From Chiloscyllium plagiosum (taxonomy: Eukaryota): DNA of 62,734 bases. Of this stretch, positions 1 to 61,083 are shown in pieces. The stretch lies in assembly GCF_004010195.1 (NCBI RefSeq), contig NC_057755.1, forward strand, positions 9,950,891-10,013,624, read 5' to 3'. A program made the position numbers and the translations under genes. The notes under the pieces are model-generated. The model was not told the DNA's origin. It made no database searches and saw only the letters and a list, made by a program, of their open reading frames with translations. Each line of letters opens with the position of its first letter. Within the stretch, counting starts at the first letter, position 1.

Positions 1-2817
1 GACCCCAGTCCTGAGACGGAGGAGATCCTTTGAATTTTCAGTTTACTATCTGTCAGCTCGGGTTCAAAACCCCAATCAAGGATGTCATAATCAATGTGAC
101 CCAACTTCTCCTCATTCCACTTACTGCAACCCCACCAAGCCCCTCCTCCCCATGTCCTATTCTCTACCTTGTAGATTTTCCTGGGACGTTTTGCCTAGAT
201 TTGCTTCCTCCGACTATGCTTCAAATATGGATAGTGTTGCCCATCCCTTGCAACCAAAAAGTCTTGGGAGAGTTGGCTCTTCTGCTTCAGGTGGTATCGA
301 AGTTCAATCCGTCATGGACCCTGGGATGTCTTTGACGTGAGATGCACGGGTAGAACACATGGTTTATGGCAGCACTTCTGGCTTATCTTCGGGGCCAGGT
401 ACATTTTGTTCCTGACCCGTGAATGGGATAGCAGATTTCGGGTGATGTATTAGTTTGTTGAGAAATGCATCACTGAAGTAAACTTTCCATGTTACCGATC
501 ACTTTGTGCTGACATTGCCTCATTTCTGTGGTTAAGAAACCAAATATTGTATACTGATGTAAACGGTCTATCTGGCAGAAGAATGTGGGCGGCATTAACA
601 TTCCCGTTGCTGTTTCACCCTGTCTGAAACGTCTGGGAAATTCAATTTTAACCTGGAGCGAAGACTTCTCCCCATCAGAAACTCTGCTAGAGTTCTCGAT
701 GTGCTGAAGAGTTGTCCTGTAATCAAACAAGAACGTGGGCAATCTGGTATCGACTGAAGCTGTCGGCTACTCCTTTAAGAGTAACTTCAACATTCGAACT
801 TCACTCTCTGCAAGAGATTGAACGATATTTGGTATAGAGCTGTTCCCCAAACATGCCGAATCGAATTCGACTTCAGGAAATACTCGAAATCACTGCTGAT
901 AAACGATTCTTCATTGTCCATGACCAATGATTCCCAGAGTGCATTTCTCGTGAAAAATCCTTGCAGCTTTTCACTTGTCATTCCCAAGTTTGCTAAGTGA
1001 ACTATATGCACATCTAAACCATTTTGAATGGACATCCACAATCAAAAACTGAGTTCACAAAAGTGAACCGGGCTGTCAAGCTTTATTTTATGTGTGATTG
1101 GTGCTGGCAATTTTACAAAATGCACTGGTTTGAACATCCCTTTGCTTTCCAGCCTTCTGGATTCTACCTTTACTGTTGCCCATAAAACAAATGGAACCGA
1201 GCGAGCCTTGGAGAACCATGGCATTGTACCCTGGTCAACATACAAGGTGGCCTTGATCGTCCCTCGTTCTTTTTGAAAATTTTCTGGATATTTAGTTGGG
1301 ACTTCACTCGGACAGTGTGTTTCTAATCGAAAAAAAAATGACCCAGTCAAAGTGAATCTTTCTCAAACGGTTCCACCCAATAGGTTTGGGTTAAAGCATT
1401 TTACTGCAATTAGTGGTAACTACATCAACTGTATCTCGATGACACCAGAATTTTGGCCTTCAATCCGCAATATTTTCATGCGATATGTTCTCAATCTCTC
1501 TCGTGCAAACTTAAGGTCTGGAGTCCAGAGAGAATCTTGTTAAAAATTGTTTCTGCTACCACTGGCACAGATATGCTGGAATTGGTCCCCTTGACAACTG
1601 GGCGACAACTTATACAGACATTTCGTCGCATTGTTTCTGATTTGGATGTCGCTACGGAATTTAGTCATTCTGAAACACACATAGGTTGACCTACCAGGGT
1701 GTGCACTCTCCTGAATACCAGCCTATGAGTTATCTCAGTCAAGTTAGGCATTGCAGAATTCGTTTGAGTTCTCGGGTCTGGATAGTGGTATCAACTTGAA
1801 TAGCTTGCTGGCCCACATCCAGGAGAACATTTTAATAATTTGTCCCAGGCTCGGCTGTGTTGTGGGCTTTTGCTGTGGCGTCACCGAGAATCCCTGTCCT
1901 CAGACTATTCTGGGCAAGAAGCTCTGTGATTACCTACACTCAAGTGGTGTTCCCCATGCTTATTTGGACAGTTGAGAGTGCCCACTTCCATGAGACGCAC
2001 TTTTGCTCCCATGCCCCACTTGCCACATTTTCTAATAACAAATTCAATTGTGGTGTCTGTTTGAATTTCTGTTGGGCTTCAGCTAGTAGGTGTGTTTACA
2101 TGATTGTATCATTAATCCTATAGACCAAACACCTTCTGAACATCTCATTCAGGATTAACCCAAACTCGCATGCTTGGCCAGTGGTCTTAAATCGTCAAAG
2201 ATCCCAACATGGACTCTCCCATTCAGGCGTATAGAACCAATAGTGTAAGAAACTTAGAGTAGACTTGGGATCGTAACATGCCTTCACTAAATTCATCACA
2301 TCATGAAAGATTTCAACACTGGTGTCTCTGGGAAAGTTAGGCTTTATTAAATAAAAATGCTATGGGTGCAAAAGCAATTTGAAAAATGTTTCATTTCATC
2401 TGCCCCAATATCGCTGGCTCAAAAGAAATAAGAAATTATTTGAACACACTGGGCGCAGTCTTCGGTGGTATGATCGAACGATTCAAGCTTCCCACATAGA
2501 GGCATGATGCCAGAAATGCTTAACTGACATTTAATAGGACGGTTGTGAGTGAATTGTCTCCTTCAGCGTACCATTTCTTGCCATTGCCAGTAAGACGTCT
2601 GCACAGAGGCTGGAATACCATCACCACGTCACTTTTGTATTAGATGTCCACAGTGCACTGGCTCTGAACCAACAGATCACAGGAATCCCTGGAATGAGCA
2701 CACTCTCAAAATCTCCGGCTTATATCCATCAGACAGGGCTCCCCGAATGGCACAGTTGGACAAACCCAAACAAGGATCAATGTCAATGAAATCCACTTGA
2801 CCCTGGTACAAATCACA
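1..2817 (-). mobile_element. Degenerate, internally deleted Gypsy/Ty3 LTR retrotransposon (copy 1)
   Basis: LTR-like sequence at 1-~127 and ~2591-2817, with a PBS-like TGGCAATGG next to the latter. Gag remnants, RT N-terminus (KARSVPFVL...RLESKGMFKPV) joined directly to integrase core (DNEESFISSDFEYFLKSNSIRH). Confidence 0.85.
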
Positions 2818-3814
2818 AGAATGTAGCATGTACCGCTTTTAAATATGAATCAAATACTGTTCGGGAACATGGAGATTATATGAGACACAATCAACAGGTA
2901 GAGGCCAGTGGAAACTTCGAGACAGGGCCAGGTTTGGCAGGGAACAACATGAAGGGACTATTTCTTAAGAGTTTAGCTTTTGAAGTCCACAAAGTCCCAG
3001 CCATCCCAATCATGTCTCACAGTCCCACATTCCCAAAGTTTCAGGTCGTTCCACAGGGTTAACAGCGACTGCTTTGTTCTGTGGGGCTAACGGATCAGAA
3101 CTAGAATTGAGAAACAATGACATGCCACATGCCGTCTCACACACAAGACAAAAGTACACAGACTTTTTCAAAATTATTTTCAAAAATGTACAGTTTCCAC
3201 AAAGTATTCTTAACGCCATTACATGAACAATTTGTGTCGGTCATTTCAGAGAGAACCATAAAAGTATGACCAACCTCATTTGAGCATTTGAACTTCTAGG
3301 CGGCTCAATCAACATGCAAGGAGGTGGAACCTTTCCTAAGTACAACAAAGACAATTCATTCCGATCCAATCGAAACTGCAAAGAATGCTTATCAGCTTAA
3401 TGTTGTGGAATTAATCTTTCTCTGACAAATTCTTGGCCATTTCATCTGCACAATTACACTTGAGTTTGTTCTGTGAAGGCGAACTGTTTATAAGTGAACA
3501 TCCATACCAAACGTGACTAGTCTAATCAGGTGATAATTTTCGTGAGCGTTTCAATAATTTGATTTACGTCTAACTATTAATGTAAAAGGAATTGAAAGAA
3601 GCTGTGTAAATTGATCCTTCACAGAATGCCGTTATAAGTGTACCTTGGTGTTTCTGATCACTCTGTTCTGAGATCCTGTCACACAACTCGTCAGTCGCTG
3701 TGACAAGAAACTGGGTCTCCTAGTTTAAAGTTAGGGGCACTACAAATCTGCCATAAGATACCTAGAAATGTGATTTACTTCTGATCTGAAGCACTGAGGG
3801 AAAGAATGCAACAT

Positions 3815-4734
3815 TCACTTCTGCCATTTTATTCGTTCAGTACAATTTACAATGAGACTAAAAGGAGACTTGAGCAAATCAAGCAACTGCTGCCTGAACA
3901 TTCTCTGGATTGCTGTGTAAATGACCGTGTTGGTGCAGGAGCTCAATAACTGAAGCATGACTCCAGCTTTCTGAAATGCTGAAACGGGGTTAAATAATGA
4001 TTTGTGCATATATGCTTTGATCAATCTATAAAAAATGAAATAGCCCACTGTGGTCATCCAGAGCAGCATGAAATTGCAGGATATTATAAAAATTAAAACT
4101 ATTGACTTTCTGCGGTTCTGGAGTTCGGGATCTTTGTCGTTCTTACTGTAGGTCTGATCCCAGAGTCTCCTCCTAGACTGGCTAGTAACGAAGATACATC
4201 TAGCAGTAAGAACATTCAACAATAAAATCAAGAAAAATGGAAACACTGGAGTAATCAGTTGCTCAAGCCAAGAAAACGCTTTCCACGCGCTTTCAAAATA
4301 AAACATTGATGATATATGGCACCCGCTTCGTGTATTATGAATTACATAATGCGATCTGTACACAAAGGGCCATGGGATGTTCTTTGAGCAGAATACTGCA
4401 GTCAAGGTCATGATGACAACACCAGCTGTCTTCCCCGTGCAATACTTTGTTTTCAGACTCTGGCAACAAATAGCTACAAAGCGATCAAAGGTAAAAGCGA
4501 CGGTGAACCAGACAGAGCAATCTACACTCGTGGGAGACAGATAGAGAACAAATTTGCACACTGGAGTGTAGAGCAGAAAGGAGTCCAACCAGAAAAGTGC
4601 AGCCACACGATACAATACTATGTTGCAGAAAATCACCATGAGATCTGATGCAGCCATGGCCAACAGATAGAGATTGACACATTTCGAGAGATTGCATCTT
4701 CCCCGAGACAGGATCCCAATTGTCAGGATGTTGA
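3815..4734 (-). CDS. Coding exon 2 of the GPR139/GPR142-like GPCR (TM1 end to TM7 and C-tail); spliced protein 330 aa
   Basis: Acceptor ttttctttcctcgcag|TC at 4736-4735. The open frame (V)NILTIGILSRGRCNLSKCVNLYLLAMAASDL continues into ORF 3815..4663, with FTFDRFVAICC (TM3 DRY equivalent), Cys in TM3 and ECL2, PFFLILLLN (TM5) and LQLLSSCTNTVIY (TM7). Stop TGA at 3817-3815. Confidence 0.93.
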
Positions 4735-5394
4735 CTGCGAGGAAAGAAAAGCTGTTACAAAAGCAAAATATCGAATCCAGTTTTTAATTCACAGAGTTGT
4801 CGAGTCATAAGGTATTAAAATAGTCTTGACGGTTAAACCATGCTGTACATTGTCACAACTGTACTAGTCCCCCCGCCTGCTCCTGGCCAATATTTGTGTA
4901 ATCCCTCCCTATTCATAAATGGGGCCACAATCACCGCTTCCTCACAAAGTTCTTTCTAGGAGCAAACAAACCCTCTATGCAAAAATGGTCCCTCATGCAA
5001 TTTAAAAAGATCTCCCCCTCACGTTAAAAATTGTCCTCGAGTCTTGAAACCCTCGTCATTGGTGGGGGCGGGGGGGAGCTACCATTAATGCTGCTACCTA
5101 TCCCAGCCATGAGTTTATTGTCTTCTATAATGTTGCCTTTCAACTTGCTGCACTTCAGTGAAACCATGTCAGCCAATCTACACTTTTCTGCTAGCTTAAA
5201 CCTTTCACATTCAGAAGCATCCTGGTGAATCTCTGCTGAACCCTGTCCAGCTTGATAATATTCTTCCTTTCACTGGGAGACTAGAATTGGAAAAGTATTC
5301 CTGATCAGGCCTCACCAATGTCCTGTACAACCTCAACACAATTCCCAACTGCTATTACATGCCATGCAGGAGTCAGCGGAAAGGCCATTATTTA

Positions 5395-5682
5395 TTATAG
5401 AATCACTGCAGTATAGAATCAGGTCATTCAGTCAATCGTACCTATAACAAACTTCCGAAGTATCCCAACCTCACCCTTATCTGTGGAGCCCTGAATTTCT
5501 CATAGCTAATCCAGCGACTTGAACATCGTTGGACTGTGGGAGGAAAACTACACGAACCAGAGGAAACACATGACACAGGAAAATGTGGGATCTCCACACA
5601 GACAGTCACTCCAGAGTGAAATCAAACCCAGGTCCTGGGCACCTTGAGACAACAGTGCGAACCACTCAGCTACTATGCCTCC
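5395..5682 (-). mobile_element. Old V-SINE in the GPCR intron (paralogous copy at ~21235-21486)
   Basis: Degenerate match to the SINE. Both copies share the same right flank (ccttgtc..ttcctaattgc). Confidence 0.75.
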
Positions 5683-8600
5683 CTTGTCTTTTCCTAATTG
5701 CCTTGAGGGTAGTTAAGAGTCAACCAAATCTCTGTGGATCTGAAGATACATATCTGAGACAAAATCACAGTAACAACAGGAACTGAAGTAAGCTGTGTGA
5801 TCGCATCCAATGGTGATGAAGGCTCATCGAACAATCCTCACATCCATTTCCTGATCCTTCCTCGTGCCTTTTGATTCCCTGGCTCATAAAGAACAAATCT
5901 CTCTCTCAGCATTAAATGTACAAAGGCATTTCAAAAATTCAGAACCATCTCAGAGACGGAATTCGATCTCTCTCAGTCTGATATTGATACCACATTAATT
6001 TGGCTCGATGACCTTCACACTCGAGCGTCTGCAGGAGACTCCAATGAGGGGAAACGTCCTTGCAGAGTTTAACCTGCCAAGCCCTTTAAGAATCCTGTAC
6101 GTTTCAATGAGATCACCTCTCACTTTTCTCAACTCTACTTTATAGAGTCCCAGCCTATTTACCATTGCTAATAAGACCATCCCTCCCACACGAGTGAACC
6201 TTTTATGAAAATATTCAAATGAAATAATATCCTCGATTATGGGAACAAAACTGCTCACGGTGCTATCGATGTGCTATTACCATAGTCTTGTACAGCTGCA
6301 GTAAGATTTCTCTATATTTGTGTAAGCTAAACGAAGTCAAGACAGGAAATGTCCTTCCCTGTAACACATTTGCGAACCAGATGGAGATTTTCCAGCAACT
6401 GACTATGGATCCATGCTCCCGTTCAATTAACTTCCCATTGAATTTAAATTTCACCAGCTGCATTAGTGGGATTTGAAACCCTGTTCCCAAAATGTTTATC
6501 TGAGATTCTGGATTACTCGTCCAGTCACATTAGCCCCTCATTCCAGTTTGCTGAGTGCTCAGGTCACAGAGATGTGGACGGCTAATTAAAGAGACTATGA
6601 GAAATAGCCGAATTTTTATCTGTGTGTCTGGCAATTGAAATAAATTTTAAAAGCCCACACTCAAGTCCTGACTGAGATATATGTCACTGTGTATTCACTT
6701 TCACCAGGTCGTAAACTAACTTCAGAATCCCTGAAAGAATAAAGTGAAAAGCCATCTTCTTAATGGCACAGTTAATTTTCGTATTAACAGAAACATTAAA
6801 TGTTGGCAGTGACTCAATTTCCTCATGCACAGAAATTTCGAAATAATCTGACACGTTACCTAATACTAAGCTGCATATCATTTCTGACATTTAACTGCAA
6901 CTCATTTCCTTACATCACAAAGAACACTAAGTTAATTTACTTAGTATTTTCAATCAAATGGTCCAGGAATGTTATGACACAGACTTTGGACCTGGCGGGA
7001 CTCAAAGCCAGGTCTCCTAGAGTCAGACATGTGAAGTTAACGCTGCACAACAACATCCCCAAGGGAGATGAAGGATTTCTGATTAAAATGACTGCGGAAA
7101 GGTAGTTCGCACATTGACATTATTTGCTGCTACTCTGTTTCATACCATACCATGACTACGAGGCAAGCTCTGGGGACCTGTTACACAATGAGGTCAAGAA
7201 TTGTTTTGTTGCTACTGCTTAGGTTTTGATACTTTTGTGAGGCTTATTTCCCTGAATAAATCTATTTTGTGAGGTATCTGGCAGGTTGACCGCTTCTCTC
7301 TTCGCGTTATACCCTTTAGGTTCAGGGTCAAGACAATAATTCGGCATCCCTTCCTCTTCCCGTGATTCATTGACCACATTGTCATTATCTAGTTTCAAAT
7401 TGCTCCTGAATACCCTTTTCTTCATTATTTAGTCGCGACTTTCTTGGTGTTCCTCACCCGCTTTTCGGGATGTCTTTGAAATTTTTCTGCTAACTTTGCC
7501 ATCCCTCGGTGTGTTTTAGCAAGGAGACATTCAGATTGTTGAACGAATTAAATTATTTATGAACACCAACACCGATTTGCTTTCTTTTTCCGCCATCAGA
7601 ATCTCAGCTAGATTATTTTAACACAGATTGTTCTCTGTTGCTTCTCACTAATACCAGGAAGGAGAAGTAAAAGCGATGATTAATGATCGACAGTGATCGT
7701 ATTGCATAGAGGATCAGGTTAAAAGAACTGATTGGCACCCGTTTCGCGTGCTCTCCTGTTCTTAAATGTGGTTAGGGAATATAGGGACGCTAAGGATTAA
7801 AATTTAATTACAACAAAAGAGAGGAGAAAACTCAAGTGGTAAGATGAGCACAAGGAAATAACACCGACAATAAAATGCACCACAGGTCCGTCACAGCGAT
7901 ACAGTAAAGGTCGCTCGGTATCTCAAGTCTGCACCAATTATAAACAACCATCTATCAGTTCTGTAAGCATTTCCAAAACAATTGGCTCATAGGATTCGCA
8001 TCGCAATGCATTTCAAAATGTATTTTCAGAGAGATCAAGGTTTCTGCCTCGACCACTTTCACAGGCTGTTACATCTAAATTTGTGTGCATAAGGTTTTCC
8101 TCGTATCTCATGTAAATTTTCTGACACGTATCTAAATCTATGTCGTCGTTCTTTGATTCTCCAAACAAGGGGAAATGTCGCTTACTGCCTAATCAGTCTA
8201 TGCCATTCATAATTTATACATTTCAATCACGCTCACTCTTAATCACCTCCGCTTAAAGGAAAATAACCCCAGTGTGTCAAATCTCCCTTCATAAATGGAA
8301 GTCTCCAGTCCAGGCAATATCATGGAAAAGCTGAAACGGAAACACATGGGAAATTGTACACGAGACAGACTCGGGCAGAATGAAAAGGAGCAGGATATTA
8401 CTCTGGATAAAGGCATTTCGACTGCTGATAACAACAAAGACGAGTGAAACAGTATAAACCCGAACACGTAGAATCAAAGCAGGGTACACGACAGAAAGTA
8501 TATATGTTTCAGTGAAGATAGATATGAAGGAAAAGTACAGCGTTTTATTTTTCCAGAAATGAATTAAAATACGGATAGAAATTACAATGGTGGCAAGGGA

Positions 8601-8933
8601 CACATAAAGTAGTGAGAAGGGAACTTTGGTATTGAAAGGTATTGGAGAGGGAAGGAGAGGCAGAGAAAGAGAGAGCAAGTGACAAAGATGGAAAATAACC
8701 CAAGTGTGAACTAAGTAAGGGACGAAAATCAAACGATTCCTTAAACAAATGTTGGAGAGATTAGAAGGTGAAGAAAAGTGCATTAGAGATAACGAAGTCT
8801 GAAAATAATCAAGAACATGTGCAAATAAAAAAAACAATAAATAAATTCGCTACACTTACTAGTCCAGAAAGCTAAAGAGTAACACTTCTGTAAAGTTGTG
8901 TTTGATAAGCAACAGAGTATGAAAATGTCTCAC

Positions 8934-9006
8934 CAGTGATACCAACTGCTGCCAGAACAGGATAGAATATAACCTCGATCGAAGATGGTTCAGACCTAAA
9001 CATCAT
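8934..9006 (-). CDS. Coding exon 1 of a GPR139/GPR142-like class A GPCR (MMFRSEPSSIEVIFYPVLAAVGIT)
   Basis: Manual minus-strand translation from ATG at 9006 (second ATG at 9003). It gives a short N-terminus plus the first half of TM1 and ends at a canonical donor ACTG|GTGAGA (GT at 8933-8932). The exon is 73 nt (phase 1), which matches the phase of exon 2. Confidence 0.85.
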
Positions 9007-9076
9007 CTTGCTGAAAGTGAATTACTCTCCAGTTTAAGGCATTCAATACAACTGTTAGAAAGACATGGCTGTCCAT

Positions 9077-9084
9077 TATTTATG
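9077..9084 (-). promoter_or_regulatory. Candidate TATA-like box (CATAAATA) of the GPCR gene
   Basis: Lies about 70 nt upstream of the ATG on the coding strand. Motif and position only. Confidence 0.4.
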
Positions 9085-9367
9085 CTGTGATGAGTCCCTA
9101 GTGATTGTATGAGGTTACATTGACATTGGCCCTAGTTACATGTTCCTGAGCAACAAGGAATTAAACCCTCGATACCTTCATTTTCCAACTCACTGCGTAA
9201 CGTAGCAAAATGCTCAGCTAGAAAAAGACGATGTTGCTAATGTGGAGGAAAGTAGAAGATGGTAATTCACCTCGTCACCTTATACCAAGAGGCACTCACA
9301 CTCATTGGGATTGTGGCCAAAGGTTTGGTTTGTCGTTAAACTAAAGGGTGTGATTCGATCTATTTTT

Positions 9368-9632
9368 GTCACATCATCGAATCACTACAGTGTGGAAGCA
9401 GGCCATTCAGCCCATCGACCCTCCAAGCCACCCCGAACGACTAAACTCCTGTAATCCTACATTGCCCATGTCTAATTCATCTAACCTACACATCATTGGA
9501 CTGTGGGAGGATATCCACACAGACACGGGGAGAAATTGTAATCTGCCGAGACAGTCGCTCAAGGATGGAATAAAACACATGTCACTGTCACTGTGAAGTA
9601 TTAATGGGAACCATTGTGTCACCGTACCACTC
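9368..9632 (-). mobile_element. Old V-SINE upstream of exon 1 (paralogous partial copy at ~26693-26852)
   Basis: Degenerate match to the SINE. Confidence 0.75.
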
Positions 9633-9664
9633 CCATGCCCCCATAACGGTCTTGGATGCTATAC

Positions 9665-10640
9665 AGCATTATACAACGGAACCAACACACTCAGAATCTA
9701 TTAAGAAGAGAGCCGAGACCCTTACTTTTTCTTATTTTATACTCAAGTGACAGGCAGTGTGCTGCAATTTCAAATTGATTGGTCAGACTGATCAGATTTG
9801 AAGCAAAATACCAAACGCTTTGCTCATACACGTTATTTGAAATACAACAAACGAAAGACTAGATTAAGTTAAACCTTTTGGAAAACTTAACTGAACAATG
9901 GATCATTAGCTACTAAATCGTAACAGTTCCAAAATGGTAACATCCCATCGGCAAAGGCAAATTCAGTAAAATATATTGTCTACCGGCAATTCTCCAGTCC
10001 AGGAAAGAGGCATGAAAAGAAAAGTTGCAGGGACAGAGAGAATAGACAATATAGAGCATAGAATGTCACAGTGCAGTAAAAGTTTCACAGATGTTGCGCC
10101 GATCTGTGAAATTAGTCTGATGCCCATCTAAACTACACTATTCTATTATTTTCCATATGTATGTCCAATGCCCACTCAAATGCCGTTAACATCAGCAAGT
10201 CTACTATTGTTGCAGGTAGACCATTCCACGCCCCTCCTACTCTCTGAGTAAAGAAACTAAAACTGATATCTGTCCTAAATCTACCATTTCTTAATTCAAA
10301 GCTATGTTCCCTCGTGTGAGTCTTCACCATCCGAGGAAAAAGGCTCTTACTGTCCACCCTACCTAAAGTTTTAGTTTAGCTTCCGAAGACCAGCATCCAT
10401 TCTCCTGCAGCGACTGTGACAGAGAGAGACTAAAGTTAAAAATTCCTAGATTTGGGGGAAAGTAACCCACTCATTCAGGCAACTTCTATTGTTCCAACCT
10501 TTACAAAAAAGAACCCAAGGCCTCATATGCTGTTTAACTAATTGAATTCAAGTAGAATGCTCTTCGTGCTGATCTTAAAACCTTGCTTCAAGAACAGGGC
10601 ACATTAGCCCCTCCCATTTAAGCCTAAGTATTGTCAAGTA
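9665..10640. mobile_element. Decayed solo LTR upstream of the GPCR gene, with a nested CR1 3' fragment (~10050-10365, minus)
   Basis: Similar to LTR-type sequence at 38103+ and homologous to 26900-27550, which lacks the CR1 piece. Confidence 0.55.
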
Positions 10641-44555: not shown

Positions 44556-44562
44556 NNNNNNN

Positions 44563-44598: not shown

Positions 44599-44600
<2 letters not shown>

Positions 44601-48838: not shown

Positions 48839-48954
48839 ATTGGGGCTGGGGGATGGACAGCAACAGACTGGGACGATATTGGGCTAAACCACTTGATCTG
48901 CTGCTTTCCCCAAAAAACCTCTTTCATCCCACAAACATGATAAGAGAGTTTGCA

Positions 48955-50544
48955 GAAGACGTGTAGCTCGGCTTGAGGTTCAGGATGCATGTTTGATTAT
49001 TGAGCTGGAAGGTTCGTTTTCAGACGTTTCGTCACCAGACTAGGCAACATCTTCAGTGAGCCTCCAAATACTCGCAGTATAACCCACTTTGTATTTATGT
49101 ATTTGAGATTCCTTGGGTTGATGATGACGTCATTTCATTTGGTGATGTCAATTCTTGTTCTTTTTCTCAGGTGATGGAGACATGATCCAAGTTAATGTGT
49201 TTGTTTATAGAGTCCTGGTTGCAATTCGCGTGCGAATTTCTGCTTGGCTTGCCCGGGAATGGCGTCCAGGCGAAGTGATGTCTTTCCTCATCTGCATGTA
49301 AGGATACTAGTGAGAGTGGGTCATGCATTGTTTTGGCCAGTTAATGTTTAAGTATCTTGACGGCTAGTTCTCTGCCTGTTTGTCGAATGTAGTGTTTGTT
49401 ACAGTTCTTGTAAGGTATTTTGTAAATGTTTTGCTTGTTCATATCGGATTTTTCAAGTTCATTAGATGCTGCCTTAGTGTGTTGATGCGTTTGTGGGATA
49501 CCACGATGCCAAGGGGTCCGAGTAGACTGCCAGTCATTTCCGAGATGTCTTTGATGTAGGGGAGAGTGGCTAGTGTTTCTGGACGTTTTGTGTCTGCATG
49601 TTTGGGTTTGTTGTTGAGAAATCCACGGACTGTGTTCATTGTGTACCTGTTCTCTTCGAATACACTGTATAGGTGATTATCCTCTGCTCTTCGTCGTTTC
49701 ACTGTGATGCACTCTGTGGTGGCTCGTTGGAATAATGTTATGATGCTCCTCGTATGTGGATGTTGGGATGATTGCTTCTGTAGTTCAACATTTGGTCCGT
49801 TTGTGTTATTTTCCTGTAGATACTGGTTTGAAGTTCCCCATTGGCTGTTCGCTCTACTGCGACATCTACGAATGGCAATTTGTTGTTGTTTTCCTTCTTT
49901 TTAGTGAATTTTATGCCAGTAAGCGTATTATTGATGGTTTTTTGAAGATTTTCTCGAATTTGTTTCTTTTAGTAATGACACCGATGTCATCCTCATAGCG
50001 GACTCAAAGTTTCGGTGGAATGGTTTGCAGAGCTGTTTGTTCGAGTCTCTGCATTACTGTCTCTGCTAAGAACCCTGATATCAGAGATCCTATGGACGAT
50101 CCATTGGTTTGTCTGCAGGTTTTATTGTTAAGGATAAAGTGGGTGGTAAGTCATAAGTCGACTAAATTGGTGATATTGTCCTTGCCGATGAAGTTAGTGG
50201 TGTTTGGTGTACCTGACTTTGGTTCTTCTAATAATGTAGTCAGTGTTTCCTTGGCCAGGTTGATATTGATGGATTTGAACAGGGCTGTTACGTCAAAGGA
50301 GAACATTAATTCATCCTCTTCTATCTTTGTGTCTTTGATCGTCTTCTGGAATTATTGGGTGGAGTGGATGGAGTGGCGTGAGATTCCACGAAATGTTTTA
50401 GTCTTTGGTGTAGCTCCTTGGCCAATCTGTAAGTTAGTGTTCCAGGTAGCGAGACTGAGGGGTCTCCTGTGAATTTTCGATAAAGTGTAGAAGCGTGGTA
50501 TGTTGGATTCGTCTAGTTTTATTTTTTGGAACTTACCAACAAAT
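48955..50544 (-). mobile_element. Penelope-like retroelement (RT plus GIY-YIG endonuclease plus pLTR), decayed
   Basis: PRFYTLSKIH, SFDVTAL, LATLPYIKDISEMT and YKIP.KNCNKHYI.QTGR (GIY-YIG-type) motifs. pLTR at ~48960-49170. Confidence 0.88.
49018..49060 (-). ncRNA. Minimal type I hammerhead ribozyme motif in a Penelope pLTR
   Basis: Minus strand reads UCA-CUGAAGA-U-GUUGCC-UAGUCU-GGUGAC-GAAA-C-GUC-UGA. Both core boxes are intact, with a 6-bp stem II, a GUC triplet and a 3-bp stem I. Confidence 0.7.
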
Positions 50545-53500
50545 NNNNNNNNNNNNNNNNNNNNNNNNNNNNNNNNNNNNNNNNNNNNNNNNNNNNNNNN
50601 NNNNNNNNNNNNNNNNNNCAAAGAATCTTCTTACAGTGCCTCTGATTTTTCTCTCTTTTTTTATTATGTTCCCTTCTACTTTCTTTTTCTCACTTCTCCA
50701 GCCCCTCCCCCACTCTGATAATGCAAGAACCCCACCAACTTTGTGCCACCTAAATTGTGCACTGGTACACTCCCCCACTGTTTTTTATGCAATTTGAACA
50801 TTACACCCCTCCATCCCAAAAATTTACATTACCCCAGATTTTGCATCTCCCCAACTATTTATCATTCCTTTAAACATCATTCTAATCTATTTTTAAGATT
50901 GATTTAAATATTCATTCTCAGCTAATGTGCTTTGAGGTTCTTTCCACAGATATTCCATTGCATCTTCTAAATAAATAAATAATATTTTTCAGGACTATTG
51001 TTGTCAGACTGGTCCCACAATGTATTAACTTTATTGTGGAAATGGAAATGAAAGACAAATTTAAACTGCTGATGTATTTTATCTTATAACTAGTGATGGG
51101 ATGAAATCTACACCATTAACGCCTGCCTGTCCAATTAATAACGTTGTTCCAAACTTGTCTGTTTTATTGTCTCCCCAGTAACTTATCCGGGCGACTGGAA
51201 TGTTGCGTTTTGATATGTTCACTCAGTATGCTTTCATGATATTCTTCTGGACTGATTCATTCATTTTCAATCATTTCATCCGTGCAAATGGAAGTGGCAA
51301 TTAAGTCTGTGTGATTCTCATACAATTAACGATCTCTTGCAAACTCATTTCCTGTCGGGGTGTGAATTTGCGTTTCTTCACTTGCTTTCATAAATCACCT
51401 TTGTGCTGAAGAGGTATCCCTGCATTATTAAGCAATAATCCATTATATGCATGCGGCATTCAATTCAATCAGCCAGTTGATCCTAAAGACTTTGACTTTG
51501 ACAAAAGAAAGTTAATGTTTTTCGTCTGCACTCATCAGAACAATTCACCGAACAATGGGAAAATAACGTCTACTTTCTGAAAGGACAGTGCTAATTGCTG
51601 TCAAGAAGTCAATGATACATAGAAGCATTTTCCGTGACAACGATTATTCTCATAATTGTCTCCTTGTCGACTAATCAGCGATCTCCCCAATACCATTGAA
51701 TTGTTTCTTTTACTGCATATTGATATTTCTTGCCATTTATTCTAATGTGCACGAAATGAAAATCTTGGAGAAAATATTTTACTTTTCCATAACGCACAAT
51801 TACGAGAAATAATTATGAAGAAATAAGTATTAAACAATAAAACCCAATAAAGGGAATTTAACCTTCTCATTCGCAGTCTAAAAATTAACTCAACTCTGTA
51901 ATATGGAGAACCCCATAACCACAGCTCGATAACATCGAGGAGGCATAAGCTACAGTTCTATAATATTGGGGATGTGCCAACCATTGCTTAATAATAACAA
52001 GGGTCTGTGAAATAAATGCATAGAGACCGTTATCCTCTCAATAAGTCACGCCTTATTTACATGTGCATAGGAAATGGGTTCTGACCAGTCAGCTCCCATC
52101 CTGTCCTGAGGATGAGGTGACTCGTTGAAACTCCTGTTTACATCTGTCAGCCAGGGCTCCCTGTTTTGTCAAGGGTAACAACCCAGGTTACAACTGTCTT
52201 ATAATGAATGTGATCCACATGGTCCTCATTTCAGTCATTATATTCCTCACACTCGAGGTTTAGTGATGTAGTCCTTTTCCCCCCCTGTAGTTTCTCCTGG
52301 GATGTTGTAGAGGAGTTTTGTTTCAGGCATTTGTGTTCACATTGTTGGTTCATCCTCCCTCCTCCAAACCCCATCCAAGACCAGGAAGATAAGATTTAAC
52401 CTGGTGGAAAATCTTCTCCCCATTAGACACTATGCTAGAGTTATCCTTGTAGTGAGGGATAGTCCTCGAATCGAAGAGAAACCAGACAAGTTAGTGACGA
52501 TTGAAGCTGTCTGCTGTTTTTTTAAACCTGCCTTCAATGCTTGAATTGCTCTTTCTGCAAGACCATTGGACGACAGATGGTATGGGCCTGTCAGAACATG
52601 TCAAATGCAATTCGACTTCAGGAAATTCTTAAAACACCGCATGATAAATGATGCCTCATTATCTTTCACCAATATTTTGAGACTCTGTGTTTTGTGAATG
52701 ATGCTCGCATCTTTTCAAACGGCATCCCTCAGTTTGGCAAATTAACTATATTCACATCCATCCACTTTCAATGGGAGTCCACAATAACCAGGAAAATGAA
52801 ACTCATGAAAGGACCAACATAGTCGATTGTAACTGGGTCCAGGGTGTACCTCGCCATTCCCACAAATGTGAGGGCACTACTTGTGGTAATTTGTGCCCTT
52901 GTTGGTACTCTGGGCACTGCCCCATTAACGCAGTAATGTTGGCAATCACTCCTAACCACCAGACATAACCTTTTGCCGACATCTTCATTTTGGAAACCCT
53001 TTGGATGACCCTTGTGAATTTCAACCTGTATCTAGTACCGAAAATTAATCGGAGCAAACACTCTTGCTCCCCATAATAAAATGCCGACCTCTACAGTGAC
53101 CTGATTTCACCGCATCCAGAAATGTTTCAATCATGGTTATGATGGCACTTCCGCTTCCCCCATCATCACCAACCGAATAAATCTTGTGAAGACACCGTAT
53201 TTTTGTGGTCAGAGTCGTATGTTTTCAGCAGCGACTAGAATGGTGATTAATAAGTTTTAAACCAGAAGTCTTCCAGGAGAGTGTCCAGAGGTGGTGTTTC
53301 TGCCAGTGAGAGGCGGCTCAAGGAATCCATACTCATCACCTCTCCTCCCAAGTTGTGATCTAACTTGCAATTTTACGCACTGAGAATAAGGTCCACCACT
53401 GAATTTGACCAGATGCTATGGAAAGATGGCTTCTTTTTTTTAAGTTGCATTACCAGGGGTTTGTAACCTACTTTTATTGCAAATTCATGTTCATGACGGT

Positions 53501-54679
53501 ATTGCTGGTAAAGATGATCGCCAAACGTTCCTCCTCTACCTTTTTGTTTGGCATCAGCCAAAGACCTGTAAGCATGAGCTACAAGGTGCTCATCTCTATT
53601 CGGTCACTGGTGAGCCAACAACACACTGACACCTTATGGGGAGACATTGCATGTCAGCGCCAACTCTCGCTTGGGATTTCAATGGGCTAATACCTAAAAT
53701 GAAGGAATATTTTTTTTCGTTTTTTTTTCAATTCTGTAACGGCTGCTTCTTGGCTACGTGACCATTTCCAAGGCTCACCCTCTTCCATTGGTAGGTTCAA
53801 AGGTGCCAATAGGGAGGTCAGGTTACCTATTAAGTTCGTATAATAAATCAACAACCCTATGAAGACATAAGCTCTGGTAGAGACGCGAGAGTCAGGCACA
53901 TTTGATCACACTCACATAACCTTCTAATAGATCACTTGCGGCAGGTGGAACACCCATGTTTCCTTCCTAAGGCACATGTACACCTTGCAGAAACGTTTGA
54001 TCACAATATCCAACTTATCTAAATGCTCCTTACTTGTCTACCTGGTTGGTCATATGTTATTCAGGTAAATGTCAACCTGGGGTAACCCTTGGAAAATGCT
54101 CTCCATTGTCTGCTGGAAATGGACAAAGAATGATATTACTCAAATGGCAGTTTTGCATATTGATACAAACCCTTACGAATATTAATTGTCGCATTCGTCT
54201 GACACCCCTCATCTAGTCGCGATTGCAGATATGCATGGCTCATTTCCAGCTTCACGAAGACCACCCCTTAATCTGTGATAGCTCACCAGTGTAGTTTCTT
54301 CGTCTGGTCAGGGTTTGGTGCAAACTTAAGAGTTGGATTTCAAAGGGAATCTTGTTAAAGACTATCTCACCAATCAGTGATACACTTTTAGAAATCAACA
54401 TGAGAGGTGTGTAATCTTTTAAGCAGACATTTAATTTCATTGTTCCTGATTTGGATGTTACTTAACAATCTAGTCATTTCTAAGCACATGTAGGCGGACT
54501 TTCCAGGGTGTGTTGTCTCGTGGATTCTGGCCTAGGAGTTCTCCTATTCAAGTCAGGAGTCATAGGATTCCCTGCTGTCTCGAGTCCGGATGCCAGCAGC
54601 AACTGGCCCGAATCTAGAAAAAAAAACATTTTAATCATTTGTTTTGGGTTTTGCAATGGGTTGACCGAGGCTCACTCTC

Positions 54680-57600
54680 ATCAGCATATACCAAAACCTT
54701 CTTAACGCTTTCTATTCCCATAAGCATCCAGATGTCTTTGCAATGTTGTAATTGTACCAGCCACCACATCCCTCCTATCCCAACGCCACTTTTCCTGGCA
54801 GCTGATTCCATACACGCACCAATTTGTGTGTAAAAAACATTAATACTAACGATCCCTTTTCAATATTCCCCATCTCACGTTAAACTTATTTCCTTGAGCC
54901 ATGGACACCCTCACACAAAGGGGGAAAAACTTGTATATTTAACGTATCCATTCCCATCATGGCTTTATAAATCTCTGTTACGTCATCCCCTCAGACCCCA
55001 TACACTCCGAGGAAGACAGCTTCAGTCTATTCAGTCTGTCGTCATTGCTGAAAACCTCCAACAGTGGCAACATCCTTCTAAATCTTTTCTGAACCCTTTC
55101 AAGCTTAACAAGAAGGTTCTTCTAGCAGAGAGACCATGATTGAATGTAATATTCCAGAAGTGGCCTAAATATTGTGCTGCAACATGGCTCCACAACTCCT
55201 ATATTAAATGCAATGACTAATAACCTTCTTCAATATCCTATCTATCTGCGACTCCACTTTGAAGGAACTATGAACGTGCACTCCAAGGTCTCTTTGTTCA
55301 GAAACACACCCCAGAACCCGAGCATTAAGTGCACAAGCCCTGCCCTGATTTGCCTTCCTAAAACGAAGCACCTCTCCTTTATTTTAATACAACTTCATCT
55401 GCCATACCTTGGCCCACTAGACCATCTAATAAAGGTCCCTTTGTAATCTGAGCTAACTTTCTTTGCTGTCCATGAGACCTGCAATTTTGGTGTCATCTGC
55501 AAACATACTAACGACGTCTCCTATTTTCACATCAAATCATTTATATATGTGATGAAAAGCAGTAGATCCAGTACCAATACCTGTGGCACACCACTGGTCA
55601 CAGACTTGCAATCTGAAAAGCAACCCTCCACCACTCCCTTATGTCTTCTACCTTCCAGCCAATTCTATGTCAATATTACTAGTTCTTCCTGTATTTCATA
55701 TGATCTAACCTTGCCAAACAGTCTACCATGAGGAACCTTGTCGAATGCCTTACTGAAGTTCAGAGAATTCACTTGCACCTCTCTGCTTTCATAATCATCT
55801 TCGTTACTTCTTCAAAAAACTCAGTCAAATTAGTATGACATGACATTCCACGCACAAAAGCATGTTGACTATCCCTAATCTGTCCATGCTTTTCCAAACA
55901 CATGTAAGTCCTGTCAATCAGTATTCAGTCCAACAATTTGCCCACCAGCAATGTCAGGATCACTGGTCTTTAGATCCCTGGCTTTTCCTCACCATCTCTC
56001 TTAAATAGTGGCATCCACCTGTCTTCCTGCACCTTACTTATGGTTATCATGATACAAATTACTCAGCAAGGGAATCGGCAATCACTTCACTAGCTCCCCT
56101 CAGAGTTCTAGAATATGCCTGATCTGTTGCCAGGAATTTATCCATGTTTACTGTTTTAAGACGTCCCGCACCTCATCCTCTGTAATACGGACTTGTTTTA
56201 AAAAAAAGATGCCGCTATATATTTCCCCATATTCTTATCTTCCATATTCTTTTCCATGTAAAGACTGGTATAATACACTCATTTAATAGCTCCTCCATCT
56301 TCTGCTATTCCATGTCGTGGCAGCCCTGTTTATCTTGAAAAGGCCGTATACTCTCCATAGTTACTCTTTTATCCTTAATGTATTTGTAGAATCTCGTATC
56401 CCTACTTACAAAAGCTATCTTATATCACCTTTTGCACTCCAGCTTTTCCTCTTAATTATAGTTCTACTGAATTGTTACTTTTCTCGGGATTCAATCGATC
56501 TCTGCTGTCCATATCTGACATATGCTTCCTTCTTTTTGTTTACAAAAGTATCAATTCCATTAATTATCCAGCATTTCCTCGACCTAGAGCCTTCACTTTC
56601 ATCCTAACATGAATGCACTGTCTCTGTAAACTATTTATCTTATTTTTAAAGTTTCCCTTTCCTTTAGCTGCGAACATCTGCCATCACTCAATGTTTGAAC
56701 GTTCTTGCCTAATATCGTCAAAACTGGCCTTCTTCCAAATTAAAAATTTACATTTCGATCATTTGTAATTTTTTTCCATCACCATTTAAAAACTAGTAAA
56801 ATTATGTTCGCTGGCCTTGGCCCTTATTCCTCAAGTGTAAGTCATGTTTTGCACCTTTTCTAGTAGGCAAATCCACATACTGATTCAGAAAACTTTCATG
56901 TACGCACTGAGCAAAAGCCTCTTCATCTAAACCCCTAACACTACAGCACCGCGAGTCTACATTTGGAAAGATTAGATTAGATTACATTACAGCGTGGAAA
57001 CAGGCCCTTCGGCCCAACAAATCCACACCGACCCGGCACGCACCCATGTCCCTACATTTACCCCTTACCTATCACTACAGGCAATTTAGCATGGCCAATT
57101 CACCTGACCTGCACATCTTTGGACTGTGGGAGGAAACCGGAGCACCCGGAGGAAACCCACGCAGACACGGGGAGAACGTGCAAACTCCACACAGTCAGTC
57201 GCCTGAGGCGGGAATTGAACCCGGATCTCAGGCGCTGTGAGGCAGCAGTGCTAACCACTGTGCCACCGTGCCACCCAGATAAAATCCCCTAGCAAAACCA
57301 CCCGACGATTCTTACAAATAACTGATATTGCATTACAAATTTTGGTTCTCAATTTCCCACTGACTGTTGGAGGTTCTATGGTCCAATCCCAATAATTTGA
57401 TTATTCATTTATTATTGCTCAGTTCTACCTAAGTAATTTCCTGAACATATTCCCAGGAATATCCTCCCTTAATACATCAATAACAATATCGAAAAGACCA
57501 CTCCCTGCTCGACTCTTTGCCCCTTTTCTATCCTTCATATAGCATCTATATCCAAGAACATAAAGCTGCCAGTCGTTTCCATTAATAGTCCACGACTCTG

Positions 57601-58900
57601 TAATTGCTATGATATCCCAGTTCCATGTTCTCAACTACGCCGTTCATCTGCCTTACGTGTCAGACCTACTGCATTGAAATAAATGCAATGTAATTTATCA
57701 GTCTGACCTCGTTCTCTGCTTTGTTCCTCCCAGCTTTTTACGATATGACTTGCTAATTTTCCCAACTATATCAATTTCAGACTGCTCGCCTTCCACACGA
57801 TCTCCCTGGTCTCCACCCCACCAGACCACCGCCCAACTTACTAGTTTAAATCCGCTCGACCAGCTACAACAAATCTCCCCGCCATTATATTAATGCCCTT
57901 TCATTTCAGATGCAATCTTTCCTTCTTAGACAGTTCACTTCTGCCACAGATGAGAATCTAATGGTCCAAAACTGTGAACCCTTCTCCCATGTACCAGATC
58001 CTCAGCCACTGATTCATCTGAGCTATCCTACTATCCTACTGTCACTAGCACATAGCATCCAGAGTAATTCAGAAGTTATCCCCCACAAAGTACAATTTTT
58101 TAAATTTTCTGCCTAGCTTCCTAAATTCTCTTCTCAGAATATCATTGTTTCCCCCCTTGCTATGTAGTTGTGTCCAATGCATAAAACAAACTCCTACTGT
58201 TCCAGCTCCCCTTCGAGAAAATTCTGTACCACCCTCTGAAATATTCTTGACCCTGTCACCTGAGAGGCACCGCACCATTTTGACGTCACATTGTCGACCG
58301 CAGTAACATCTGTATGCGCTTTTGACTCGAGGATCCCCTATCACAGTCGATCGCTTGGAACCTCATGTAGTCCTCGGTGTATTAGAGACAATCTCATTAT
58401 CAGCAAACCTGGTTGACAGTGCTACATCCTCTCATGAGTCCGTCAGATTCCAAAACCGCATACTTGTTTGCGATGGAAATAGTTACAGGAGTCTTCTGTA
58501 CTACTTGCTTTCTTCTCCTAACCTTCCTGGCGGTAACCCAAATATCCAACTGTGCATTTGGTTCATCTCCCTTCATGCCTCTGCCATCAATCGCACCCCC
58601 AACTCCTTTAAATTCCTAATTCCTTCTAACTGCCGCTCCAACCGATTCCTGTAAGCTGATAGGATTCTCAAACAAACACAATTCCTGTAAAGGTAATCGT
58701 CAGTGACAGAAGAACTCTGTAATCTCCCAACTGCAAGAGTGATAGCACACCAATGCACTGAATAATAACCTCAGAACCTCCATACCCAGAAAATAGCACA
58801 GTCAGTCTGCTCTGGAAACTCTGCTCCAGGCTGGCTTCGAACTAGTGCTTGTTATATTTGTAAAGTTTAATCAAGGGACAGATCTCATGCAAAAAAAACG
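54680..58900 (-). mobile_element. Near full-length decayed CR1 LINE nested in Gypsy copy 3
   Basis: Minus-strand ORF1 remnants (RNCVCLRIL...RLERQLE; IGDPRV) and ORF2 remnants (WDIIAITESW; FADDTK at ~55505-55488). Confidence 0.88.
56972..57276 (-). mobile_element. tRNA-derived V-SINE (HE1-like), well preserved, nested in a CR1
   Basis: A box TGGCACAGTGG, B box GGTTCAATTCC, V-domain GTGTGGAGTTTGCACGTTCTCCCCGTGTCTGCGTGGGTTTCCTCCGGG and a (TCTAA)n tail. Confidence 0.92.
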
Positions 58901-59929
58901 CCCCTTTAAAAGTAGCCAGTTACTGTTGCTCTGTTGTGATCTCTTCCACCCAATTTTCTACAATGTCAGCTATGAATCTCGCTGTTTATTTATTTGTCTT
59001 AAAACGATCTCCCATGTCCAGAAGTACCTGAAACCAGGTAGGAAACGCAGTTGCTGTGCGCTGTACTGCTGGGTCAGACATCTGTTTGAATAACTTCCCA
59101 TCTGGTCACTACCTTTGTCTCCCTCCCTCCTTTTTAAAATACCATTGTTTTGATCATCTTTGACCGTGGGAGGAAAGCAGAGCACCCATGAGAAACACTT
59201 TGTTATCTCTATCTGAACACCAGTTGGGCTTTAGCTCACAGGTGCCTTTGCATGGTTATTTCTTCGTCTCAAAAACGCTGCTACATTCAGGATTAACTCA
59301 AAATCACGTGTTTCTGCAACTCTTCTTAACCTCGTCAAAAATCGAAATACAGATTCTCCTGGTTCTCAAACAGCTGAATAAAACTGATAGCATCTCAGAA
59401 TTCGAGGAGGCTTGGAGTGGTAAGAATTAACTAAAACATTTAACTATTAAAAGGTGTGTCTAGGAATGTCAGGTCTTTAACAACTGAAAACGTTACGATC
59501 GACAAACAGTCGGAACGAATATTGGTTGCGCTTCATCTGCCCCAATGTTATTTACTCAGAAAGAAATAACACATTCGTTCCACAGTCTTCAACGGCAGGA
59601 TTGAGCGAGTCAAGCTTCCGAAAGAAAGGCATGATGCCAGAAACCTAATTCAAAGAGGACTGTTGAGAGCAAACTGTCTTCCAGATGGTACTTTTCTCAC
59701 TTGTCACCACTGATTAACTGCACAGAGGTCGGTTTCCTATCACCAAGTCATCCTTTATTTGCATGTGCGCAGTACCTGGGATCCGACCAACCACATCACG
59801 GCCAATCCCCAGGAAGAGAAATTTATCTGAATCTCCATTTCTTTCAATCAGCCAGAGCTCCCTAATTTGTCCAGATTAAAAACCACAGTCAAGGATCACA
59901 CAGTCAATCTATTGCACCGGGCCCTCGCT

Positions 59930-60115
59930 GAACCACTACTCTGTAATATTGAGCACTCCTCAATCACTGCTGTATAATATGCAAGGCGAATAAAACAACT
60001 CTTAGTAATATGAAGTACCCAACAACTACTAATCTGTAATATGGAGGATGCATCAAAAACTGGTCTGCAATATGAGGTCACATCAATCACTGGTCTGCAA
60101 TATGGAGGTGACATT
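59930..60115. repeat. Degenerate ~30-bp minisatellite (actggtctgcaatatggaggtcacatcaatc), also at ~14900-14992 and ~51885-52000
   Basis: A tctg(t/c)aatat(g)gagg-like core recurs at about 30-31 bp spacing at all three sites. Confidence 0.75.
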
Positions 60116-60943
60116 AAAAGGTTAGCATATACAGACAGAGATTAATGCAAGCTTAGACATAGAATCAGGTGTGACACGTCAAATCTTGGACAGCGTAGTA
60201 CTCCAGAGATTATTCGGAAAATTCCACATGGTCAAGTTTTCCTTTTGACATCTTAATCTCCCTCACTCCCATCGTTTCAACCACTTCCCCAAGGGTCGCA
60301 GGACGACTGTTTCGTTTTGTGGGACTAAAGGATCAGAATTTAGATTGAGATACAAACACTAGCCACATTCTCTCTGACATATACAGAGACAGAAATACAC
60401 AGATATTTTGAATGTGTCCAAAAAAATCTAGTTTCCACAAATTATTCTTAATGAACAATTCATTCTTCTAAATAACATGACCTTCCTCATTTGAGCACTT
60501 GCACGGTTTGGTGACTCAGTCGAAATGCAAGAGTGCATAACGTTTCTTAAATACGGCAAGAAATGCGTTCAATTTCCATAGAAACTACAGAGAACGTTTA
60601 CCAGCCCAACGTTGTGCAATCGGTCTATCTGTGACAAATTCATAGCCATTTCTTCCTCACAATTACACTTATGCTTGTAAAGTGAAGAAAATATATTTGT
60701 GGAGCAGTATATTTTCAAAATGCGACTAACTATTATTTTGATGAGGTTAATAAAAATAATTTAGGTCTCACTTATAATGTAAAAGAAATTGGAAGGATCT
60801 ATATAAGTTCATAATTCGCATACCACCTTTCCAAAGTTTAGTTTGAAGAGAAGTTCTGATAATTCTGTTCAGAGATATTACTGCACACCTGTGGTGTCAC
60901 TGTGGTCTCCTGGTTTAACACTTTTAACATCCTACAAGCTCCC

Positions 60944-61083
60944 TCAAATTGTGACACTGTACCGCTGCTTTACTTGTTCAGTACGATTACTGATGAGACT
61001 CAGGGGAAACTTGAACAAATGTTGCCTGAACATTGTCTGCGTTCCTGTATAAATTACCGTGTTGGTGCAGGGGCTCAGTAACT
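60944..61083 (-). CDS. 3' end of a second GPR139-like paralog (partial, runs into the assembly gap; gene or pseudogene undetermined)
   Basis: Manual translation QLLSPCTNTVIYTGTQTMFRQHLFKFPLSLISNRTEQVKQRYSVTI* aligns with gene 1 QLLSSCTNTVIYTAIQRMFRQQLLDLLKSPFSLIVNCTERIKWQK* with a 3-aa gap. The 3' flank 60200-60930 is homologous to 2960-3730. Confidence 0.85.

Follow-up and report, generated by a model that had tools for sequence, protein, structure and literature searches.

A segmental duplication, strictly defined, is longer than 1 kb and has an identity of at least 90%. Retrotransposon insertion-associated deletions and Alu-Alu-type recombination deletions are known from primates. In cartilaginous fishes, the elasmobranch V2R and SUCNR1 clusters, as far as the main text of their description goes (10.1101/2025.06.08.657570), are examples of receptor clusters that evolve by birth and death, with tandem GPCR copies in variable number within intergenic DNA swollen by transposable elements (TEs). 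The locus analysed here, in a window of 62,734 nucleotides from Chiloscyllium plagiosum (NC_057755.1, positions 9,950,891 to 10,013,624), has these traits too, but it concerns another receptor family, and both the duplicated block as a whole and its decay can be followed at single-base resolution. With strict segmental duplications it shares multi-kilobase collinear copies with embedded repeats in common, whereas its identity of 70–74%, rather than at least 90%, makes it far older than that class. As in the primate deletions, a young SINE or LINE lies at the joint of a kilobase-scale deletion with no visible target-site duplication, although the elements here are those of a shark and the proposed mechanism comes from a single assembly, which shows the locus after the deletion.

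The window contains a tandem duplication of a genomic block for an orphan cell-surface receptor, which is real and old. The first-pass annotation had recognized three tandem units, and three units in the same orientation are found, beginning before position 1, at about 14,875 and at about 51,885:

1..14860: unit 1, with its left end outside the window and with the only intact receptor of the window
14875..42700: duplicated part of unit 2, 74% identical to unit 1, with both receptor exons absent
42701..51884: 9.2 kb between units 2 and 3, with a MITE, a CR1-type LINE, a Penelope-type LINE and about 2.8 kb assigned to no element
42724..43662: the MITE, with 20-bp terminal inverted repeats, adjoining the end of the unit 1/unit 2 homology
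51885..61083: unit 3, about 70% identical to units 1 and 2, ending in an assembly gap

Units 1 and 2 share 11 blocks in the same order and on the same strand (8,467 aligned columns, 74.2% identity), with 8,914 of the 14,875 unit-1 bases matched by a unit-2 counterpart; the chance of 11 blocks falling in this order and strand is about 1e-11. The stretch between units 2 and 3 has no unit-1 counterpart except for a family match of the Penelope-type ends. Three pairs of blocks had been named as collinear, and all of them align far above the best of 50 shuffles: 6560-7510 with 23600-24577 (score 736 versus -197), 2960-3730 with 60200-60930 (387 versus -149), and 14100-14860 with 41630-42715 (306 versus -246). 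Their description as non-TE blocks is true in part: single-copy DNA is included, but many blocks common to the units are old TE relics that were duplicated in place. In the bins 3000-3663 and 6984-7647, contig depth is 11–29 in all three DNA runs, compared with 10^4–10^6 in repeat regions, on a map that reached to 22.9 kb and with a cut at 85% likeness, under which very old TE relics would pass as single-copy too. Collinear single-copy sequence remains between the units; its disappearance after masking is what the annotation had said would undo the duplication. Unit 2 has indeed expanded to roughly double or more: unit 1 measures about 15 kb, the duplicated part of unit 2 measures 27.8 kb, and from its start to unit 3 the distance is 37 kb.

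Among the pieces listed, two of the three DNA runs have a contig across the junction between units 1 and 2 (about 14,870), at 13488-16297 in organism B and at 14000-16349 in organism C. Since contigs of two related species cross this junction, it is not an assembly artefact, and since it is present in both, the duplication is older than both species splits.

The coding sequence of the receptor is distributed as follows:

8934..9006, minus strand: receptor exon 1, with 24 codons and one further base and a GT donor at 8933, located by tblastn with homolog N-termini (best E 3e-5) and by its splice sites
3815..4734, minus strand: receptor exon 2 (AG acceptor at 4735; Pfam 7tm_1, E 3.7e-16)
60944..61083, minus strand: 3' end of the unit-3 receptor (final 140 bp of the coding sequence; reading frame kept, 9 nt deleted, stop present)

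The receptor of unit 1 is intact, with two exons, a spliced ORF of 330 aa and an intron at 4735-8933; this position of exon 1 bears out the earlier labelling of 6560-7510 as intron. Two further stretches considered as exons, 7300-7450 and 14250-14350, were dismissed, as their stops differ between units. The 7tm_1 domain and the nearest relatives agree in marking the predicted product as a class A GPCR of the elasmobranch "probable GPR139" family. Of the eight exon-2 differences, five are synonymous (p = 0.027, tested against 25%, among the 40 variants listed of 1,949); exon-2 divergence (4.8% in organism B, 6.3% in organism C) is only modestly below the non-coding divergence from the window (5.9% and 9.2%). 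The intact ORF and the synonymous excess suggest that the unit-1 receptor stayed functional. In 2% of a single-cell RNA run, depth was zero over 3000-4327, and 14 partial reads lay at a family-conserved motif at 4475, all with the paralog base; this is not taken as bearing on expression.

The coding end in unit 3 is 82% identical to that of unit 1 over 115 columns (70% in the flank); a gap of 490 N (61084-61573) lies directly upstream, and the rest of the gene is hidden or lost there. That the duplication amplified the receptor, as had been proposed, is right for its birth, but there is now one intact gene, one unit without both exons, and 140 bp before a gap. The Gypsy element had also been placed next to a receptor 3' flank in each unit; unit 2, however, has neither receptor nor 3' flank, and in unit 3 the coding sequence is visible at 60944-61083 only.

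Unit 2 differs from unit 1 by the following replacements and insertions:

17733..21141: 3.4 kb of replacement DNA in place of unit-1 2498-5340 (right LTR, 3' flank and exon 2)
24578..26697, plus strand: Penelope-type LINE (RVT_1, E 6.5e-8) with a 748-N gap inside, replacing unit-1 7511-9459 (exon 1 and promoter)
27921..30604, plus strand: CR1-type LINE present in unit 2 only (RVT_1, E 8.8e-19; Exo_endo_phos_2)
30709..39424: mixed insertions specific to unit 2, 8.7 kb in all

Unit 2 has no right LTR and no 3' flank, and neither receptor exon is found there by tblastn; local alignments of both exons to it score below shuffles. The 3.4-kb replacement begins with an inverted piece of an LTR; at the joint stands a young SINE, truncated at its 5' end (18251-18456), followed by a 5'-truncated Gypsy with its 3' LTR. 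The depth map places a repeat end at 17734. This Gypsy insert, at 18.6-21.1 kb, has Integrase_H2C2 (residues 377-425) upstream of RT_RNaseH (772-854) in one frame and is presumably of the Gmr1 type. The SINE at 18251 is 91% like a copy at 56972, SINEs older than the duplication being 70-75% alike, and a further copy matches the LINE end at 26565-26697 at 92%. The two CR1 copies at 27.9 and 46.2 kb (68% alike) raised the possibility of a nested duplication, which was rejected because their flanks do not match. Pfam scans of X-read-through frames of decayed elements gave matches in 2 of 24, 2 of 27 and 2 of 15 frames, one of the last being a chance zinc-finger; TE labels in 4.8-15 kb and 39-45.3 kb are based on known motifs, on self-matches and, as far as 22.9 kb, on depth.

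Another explanation of these losses, which we consider unlikely, is that the triplication is real but that the unit-2 exon loss is an artefact of collapsed or mis-joined repeats, in which case there would be two or three live receptors. One N gap lies in the exon-1 replacement and another inside exon 2 of unit 3, the exon-2 joint is a SINE of very high copy number (depth about 10^6), and none of the 24 pieces listed of about 346,000 is a contig across the unit-2 joints at 17733, 18250-18600 or 21141. Given the 748-N gap and no bridging contig among those listed, it is the assembly itself that attests the exon losses; losses hitting exactly both exons, together with a unit-3 break inside an exon, would also be expected from trouble in assembling multi-copy exons. 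However, 17733-21141 is gap-free, and on either side of it the units are collinear again from the base expected; the 748-N gap has consecutive parts of a single LINE type on its two sides. Moreover, the organism-A run has only two contigs at 4577 and 4685; their total depth of 27 is what one diploid locus would give, although the 85% cut could have excluded a unit-2 exon. The reading we prefer is that unit 2 lost its exons.

The origin of the units themselves could be sought in the repeats with which they begin:

1..2822, minus strand: Gypsy A, decayed unit-1 copy (left LTR 1-130, truncated where the window begins; right LTR 2588-2822)
~2823-2895: remnant of the right half of the 30-bp minisatellite, unit 1
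14875..14992, plus strand: left half of the decayed 30-bp minisatellite, unit 2, its left edge being the unit 1/unit 2 junction
14992..17732, minus strand: Gypsy A, unit-2 copy (left LTR 14992-15207; right LTR deleted; 134-bp LINE end inserted at 17259-17392)
51885..52008, plus strand: left half of the 30-bp minisatellite, unit 3
52008..59942, minus strand: Gypsy A, unit-3 copy (LTRs 52008-52245 and 59712-59942, 64% alike; CR1-type LINE inside, ~54700-58800)
59943..60120, plus strand: right half of the 30-bp minisatellite, unit 3 (TRF period 30)

Gypsy A sits inside the minisatellite. Its unit-3 copy has direct LTRs around pol, with RNase H before integrase (RT_RNaseH_2, E 7e-6, below the curated cutoff; integrase match, E 0.002). 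The copies in units 1 and 2, which gave no integrase or RT match in the Pfam scan, were assigned to Gypsy A by alignment to unit 3; both are missing a 1.5-kb RT/RNase H stretch of the unit-3 copy, and their left LTRs have an 18-bp deletion in common. Both junctions of the element are common to the units, which makes it a single insertion. Opposite-end LTR pairs have a K2P divergence of 0.46-0.56 (about 0.5), compared with 0.36-0.45 (about 0.39) for unit 3 versus units 1 or 2 over non-coding and TE blocks, and 0.27-0.37 (about 0.31) for unit 1 versus unit 2. Since LTR–LTR divergence exceeds that of both duplications, Gypsy A is a passenger. The LTR identities (61-66%) are near the aligner's noise floor (57-64% on shuffles), so distance dates the insertion only loosely, and placing it first relies on the common junctions.

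The first-pass annotation had suggested that the Gypsy may have seeded unequal crossing-over, and had proposed the comparison of LTR–LTR divergence (here 0.46-0.56) with inter-unit divergence (0.27-0.45 in non-coding blocks); the former being the larger, the comparison argues against Gypsy as the seed, and we regard an origin of the units by unequal crossing-over between Gypsy copies as very improbable. It is true that the same Gypsy, in the same orientation, begins each unit and that unit 1/unit 2 divergence steps from 22.8% on the left to 27.4% on the right (permutation p 0.002-0.012), possibly a trace of later inter-unit exchange. However, this step maps to 5.9-9.5 kb (intron or promoter), outside the Gypsy, and one insertion with flanks in common means that no second copy existed before the first duplication. 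Furthermore, the unit-2 Gypsy resembles unit 1 from its left LTR onward and throughout; this resemblance and the common 18-bp deletion exclude a unit 1/unit 3 crossover chimera, and no chimeric Gypsy lies at the junction. Least credible of all is that the matches are independent transposon copies, or that the block is one large mobile element carrying the receptor: much of the shared DNA is repeat-derived on the depth map, but single-copy blocks and TE junctions common in an order expected by chance at about 1e-11 refute the former, and, against the latter, neither terminal repeats nor a transposase bound a unit, the LTRs enclosing the Gypsy and not the receptor.

The minisatellite, also proposed as a seed of the amplification, fares better in one respect: the unit 1/unit 2 junction lies within about 20 bp of the left edge of the array. 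Near 42.7 kb, a search for the minisatellite found none (score 24 versus a shuffle maximum of 28). A crossover between homologous repeats at both breakpoints would fit only if the 9.2 kb before unit 3 consisted wholly of later insertions.

The three-unit block is a case of ordinary gene-family birth and death. We are confident, though short of certain, that the history of the locus is birth-and-death evolution of a tandem receptor cluster, by an insertion, two duplications and the exon losses of unit 2. The ancestral block, of about 15 kb, would have held a two-exon GPR139-like receptor and, about 1 kb past its stop, the 30-bp minisatellite. Gypsy A entered the minisatellite first, as its common junctions and oldest divergence indicate. 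A first tandem duplication would have given unit 3 and the ancestor of units 1 and 2, and a second, later one units 1 and 2, an order shown by divergence and by the indels common to units 1 and 2. The breakpoint of the second is observed at the minisatellite; an unequal crossover in the array may have produced it, or slippage or end-joining there. Two separate deletions, at the joints of which younger retroelements now stand, would then have removed exon 2 and exon 1 from unit 2; that structure is observed in the assembly, and insertion-associated deletion or repeat–repeat recombination may account for it. Insertions would have doubled the size of unit 2.

The family to which the receptor belongs appears to be large. 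A protein search gave 1,855 relatives at E<=0.001, and all 120 of those listed are from sharks or rays, 116 of them named "probable G-protein coupled receptor 139"; the highest identity to the window receptor among these 120 is 61%. The N-terminal motif and junction position of homologs agree with exon 1. In a tree made by a quick method from the window protein and the best 60 of the 120 listed relatives, with no bony-vertebrate rows, the protein lies on a long branch (0.62) inside a clade of 36 rows (SH-aLRT 100) with species-specific expansions. The relatives are clustered: 8 of the best 18 matches are on one 29.8-Mb Heptranchias contig, and 15 of the 120 listed are on one Heterodontus contig. 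Human GPR139 gave a distant, weak PDB match only (E 8e-9, residues 1-131), so "GPR139" is a label here and not a statement of one-to-one orthology. None of the titles and abstract openings found by the literature searches describes a shark or ray expansion of GPR139-like genes. Extra GPR139/142-related subtypes in coelacanth and fishes are reported in PMC6504862, and the parts of it and of PMC12294341 considered here hold nothing on sharks and GPR139. GPR91 is the sole "GPR" match in the main text of 10.1101/2025.06.08.657570, the supplements of which (tandem-cluster inventory, Fig. S3, Table S4) may list the family. The large shark and ray expansion seems to be undescribed so far.

As a duplication, the locus is ordinary; it is well ordered in that the succession of one insertion, two duplications and two exon losses can be worked out, with two related species to date them. 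A wider reading, which we offer tentatively and think rather doubtful, is that the window samples a very large, apparently undescribed receptor repertoire, in which GPR139-like tandem clusters would re-expand in each lineage as chemosensory and immune families do, with the 30-bp minisatellite as a recurring breakpoint driving copy-number turnover and with gene death via retroelement-associated exon deletion. The wider use of the locus is as a pointer to the GPR139-like receptor family; if that repertoire were sensory or immune, it would matter for shark biology.

The tandem triplication of the receptor block is real, old and ordinary in kind. Self-BLAST of the window (41% GC, four N runs) gave a same-strand chain of matches linking 1-14.86 kb to 15.1-42.7 kb, along which the offset rises from 15.1 kb to 27.8 kb, plus a further same-strand set reaching 52-61 kb. 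Units 1 and 2 share 11 blocks with order and strand kept (74.2% identity over 8,467 columns). The three inter-unit blocks named in the first-pass annotation aligned with scores of 306-736, against shuffle maxima all below 0. The main features are:

1-14,860: unit 1, with an intact receptor gene
3815-4734, minus strand: receptor exon 2
8934-9006, minus strand: receptor exon 1
14,875-42,700: unit 2, with a dead copy
17733-21141: unit-2 stretch in place of unit-1 2498-5340 (right LTR, 3' flank, exon 2)
42724-43662: element of 939 bp, GC-rich in its core and flanked by 20-bp terminal inverted repeats, ~30 bp from where unit1/unit2 homology ends; by terminal repeats only, we take it for a MITE
51,885-61,083: unit 3, with receptor coding sequence visible for only 140 bp, in frame
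61574-62734: satellite of ~28-bp units, past the last gap

Contigs from the DNA runs of three organisms (A, B and C) were aligned over window 3000-22900. Two segments shared between units, the 3' flank at 3000-3663 and the distal intron at 6984-7647, had single-copy depth (11-29), against up to 10^4-10^6 in SINE and LTR bins; collinear unique sequence thus outlasts masking, as the first-pass annotation had supposed. The unit1/unit2 junction (~14,870) is spanned by one organism B contig and one organism C contig, so it is real and predates both splits; this, with the collinear same-strand blocks and the single-copy sequence within them, bears out the proposed triplication. Non-coding difference from the window is 0.7% in organism A, 5.9% in B and 9.2% in C, and the younger duplication lies at ~3 times the K2P distance to organism C.

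The Gypsy, a decayed LTR retrotransposon, sits within a 30-bp minisatellite, whose array borders its left side in units 2 and 3, and its right side in units 1 and 3; it is thus a single insertion copied along with the units. In non-coding and TE blocks, K2P is 0.36-0.45 for unit 3 against units 1/2; for unit 1 against unit 2 it is 0.27-0.37. An 18-bp left-LTR deletion is common to units 1 and 2, and unit 3 retains an RT/RNase H stretch that both lack. The probable order is Gypsy insertion, unit-3 split, unit1/2 split and exon losses.

The suggestion that the Gypsy seeded the duplication is not supported: a lone copy could not mispair with itself at the first duplication, and the unit-2 copy is no unit1/unit3 chimera, so the element was a passenger. 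Nor did comparing opposite LTRs (K2P 0.46-0.56, near the noise floor) with the units (0.27-0.45) favour seeding. The minisatellite, the other proposed seed, fared better at one end: the end of unit 1, which aligns to ~42,700, adjoins the array's left edge within ~20 bp, but no minisatellite was seen at 42.7 kb. Of two readings, one is an unequal crossover within the minisatellite, the whole 9.2 kb before unit 3 being inserted afterwards; of this, at least 6.3 kb can be recognised as TE. On the other, a non-homologous break fell at the edge of the array, and ~2.8 kb of ancestral sequence escaped copying. Within 5.9-9.5 kb (unit-1 coordinates 5882-9464), unit1/unit2 divergence steps from 22.8% to 27.4% (p 0.002-0.012), which may reflect a later exchange with another unit (a chimeric unit or old gene conversion) or plain rate variation.

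The first-pass annotation placed a receptor 3' flank in every unit; unit 2 has no receptor. Protein matches (tblastn, window) are confined to unit 1 and 61081-60968, and both exons, when aligned locally against 14.9-61 kb, scored under shuffles. The stretch replacing exon 2 contains a piece of LTR in inverted orientation, a SINE that is both young and truncated, and a truncated Gypsy whose integrase precedes RNase H, presumably Gmr1 (domain matches and domain order only). Two same-family LTRs there (75% alike) face outward around the SINE and the Gypsy fragment. Unit-1 7511-9459 (exon 1 and promoter) is replaced by a LINE with a 748-N gap, which we take, from domain matches only, to be Penelope. 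Further LINEs are assigned, likewise from domain matches only, to CR1; 47386-47559 is a local 85-bp tandem duplication within a CR1-type RT. Elements at both loss joints are young, being 91-92% like other copies against 70-75% for pre-duplication SINEs, so the exon losses would have come well after duplication. There is a small chance that the losses are assembly errors, since none of the contig pieces listed spans the joints around the exon-2 replacement, and that of exon 1 lies beyond the mapped 3000-22900.

Unit 3 shows stronger conservation in its coding sequence than in the flank (82% and 70% identity, z=3.0). The coding sequence is followed by a 490-N gap and then the satellite, which could represent an array of subtelomeric type or else a mis-scaffolded piece cutting unit 3 short.

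In unit 1, ORF 3815-4783 encodes a GPCR with a 7tm_1 domain. Homolog N-termini place exon 1 at 9006-8934, and a GT donor (8933) and AG acceptor (4735) give an open 330-aa protein. In a partial listing, five of eight exon-2 differences are synonymous, a weak sign of purifying selection. In run X1, contig depth over the receptor is 11-16, about half the 21-27 further right (window 3000-9400), which suggests that the gene has two divergent alleles. At window 4475, close to where TM3 ends, a motif is matched by 31-33 contigs in each DNA run, and also by 14 RNA reads carrying a different base; the receptor therefore has numerous relatives in these genomes, some of which may be transcribed.

A protein search found 1,855 relatives at E<=0.001. 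All of the 120 matches listed come from sharks and rays, 116 carry the name probable or putative GPR139, and the highest identity among them is 61%. A quick tree built from the window protein with the best 60 of these 120 places that protein in a 36-row clade, within which Heptranchias, Pristiophorus, Scyliorhinus with Mustelus, and skates each show an expansion of their own. One Heptranchias contig carries 8 of the best 18 matches and one Heterodontus contig 15 of the 120 listed, so same-chromosome clusters are the norm in this GPR139-like family. No description of its expansion in cartilaginous fishes was found in the literature searched, which mostly excluded subscription titles. Additional GPR139/142-related subtypes are reported in coelacanth and fishes, sharks going unmentioned in the part of that paper at hand (PMC6504862). 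The elasmobranch V2R and SUCNR1 clusters, as described in a recent account (10.1101/2025.06.08.657570), are tandem and variable in size, like the receptor units here. The receptor family itself is a lead worth pursuing.
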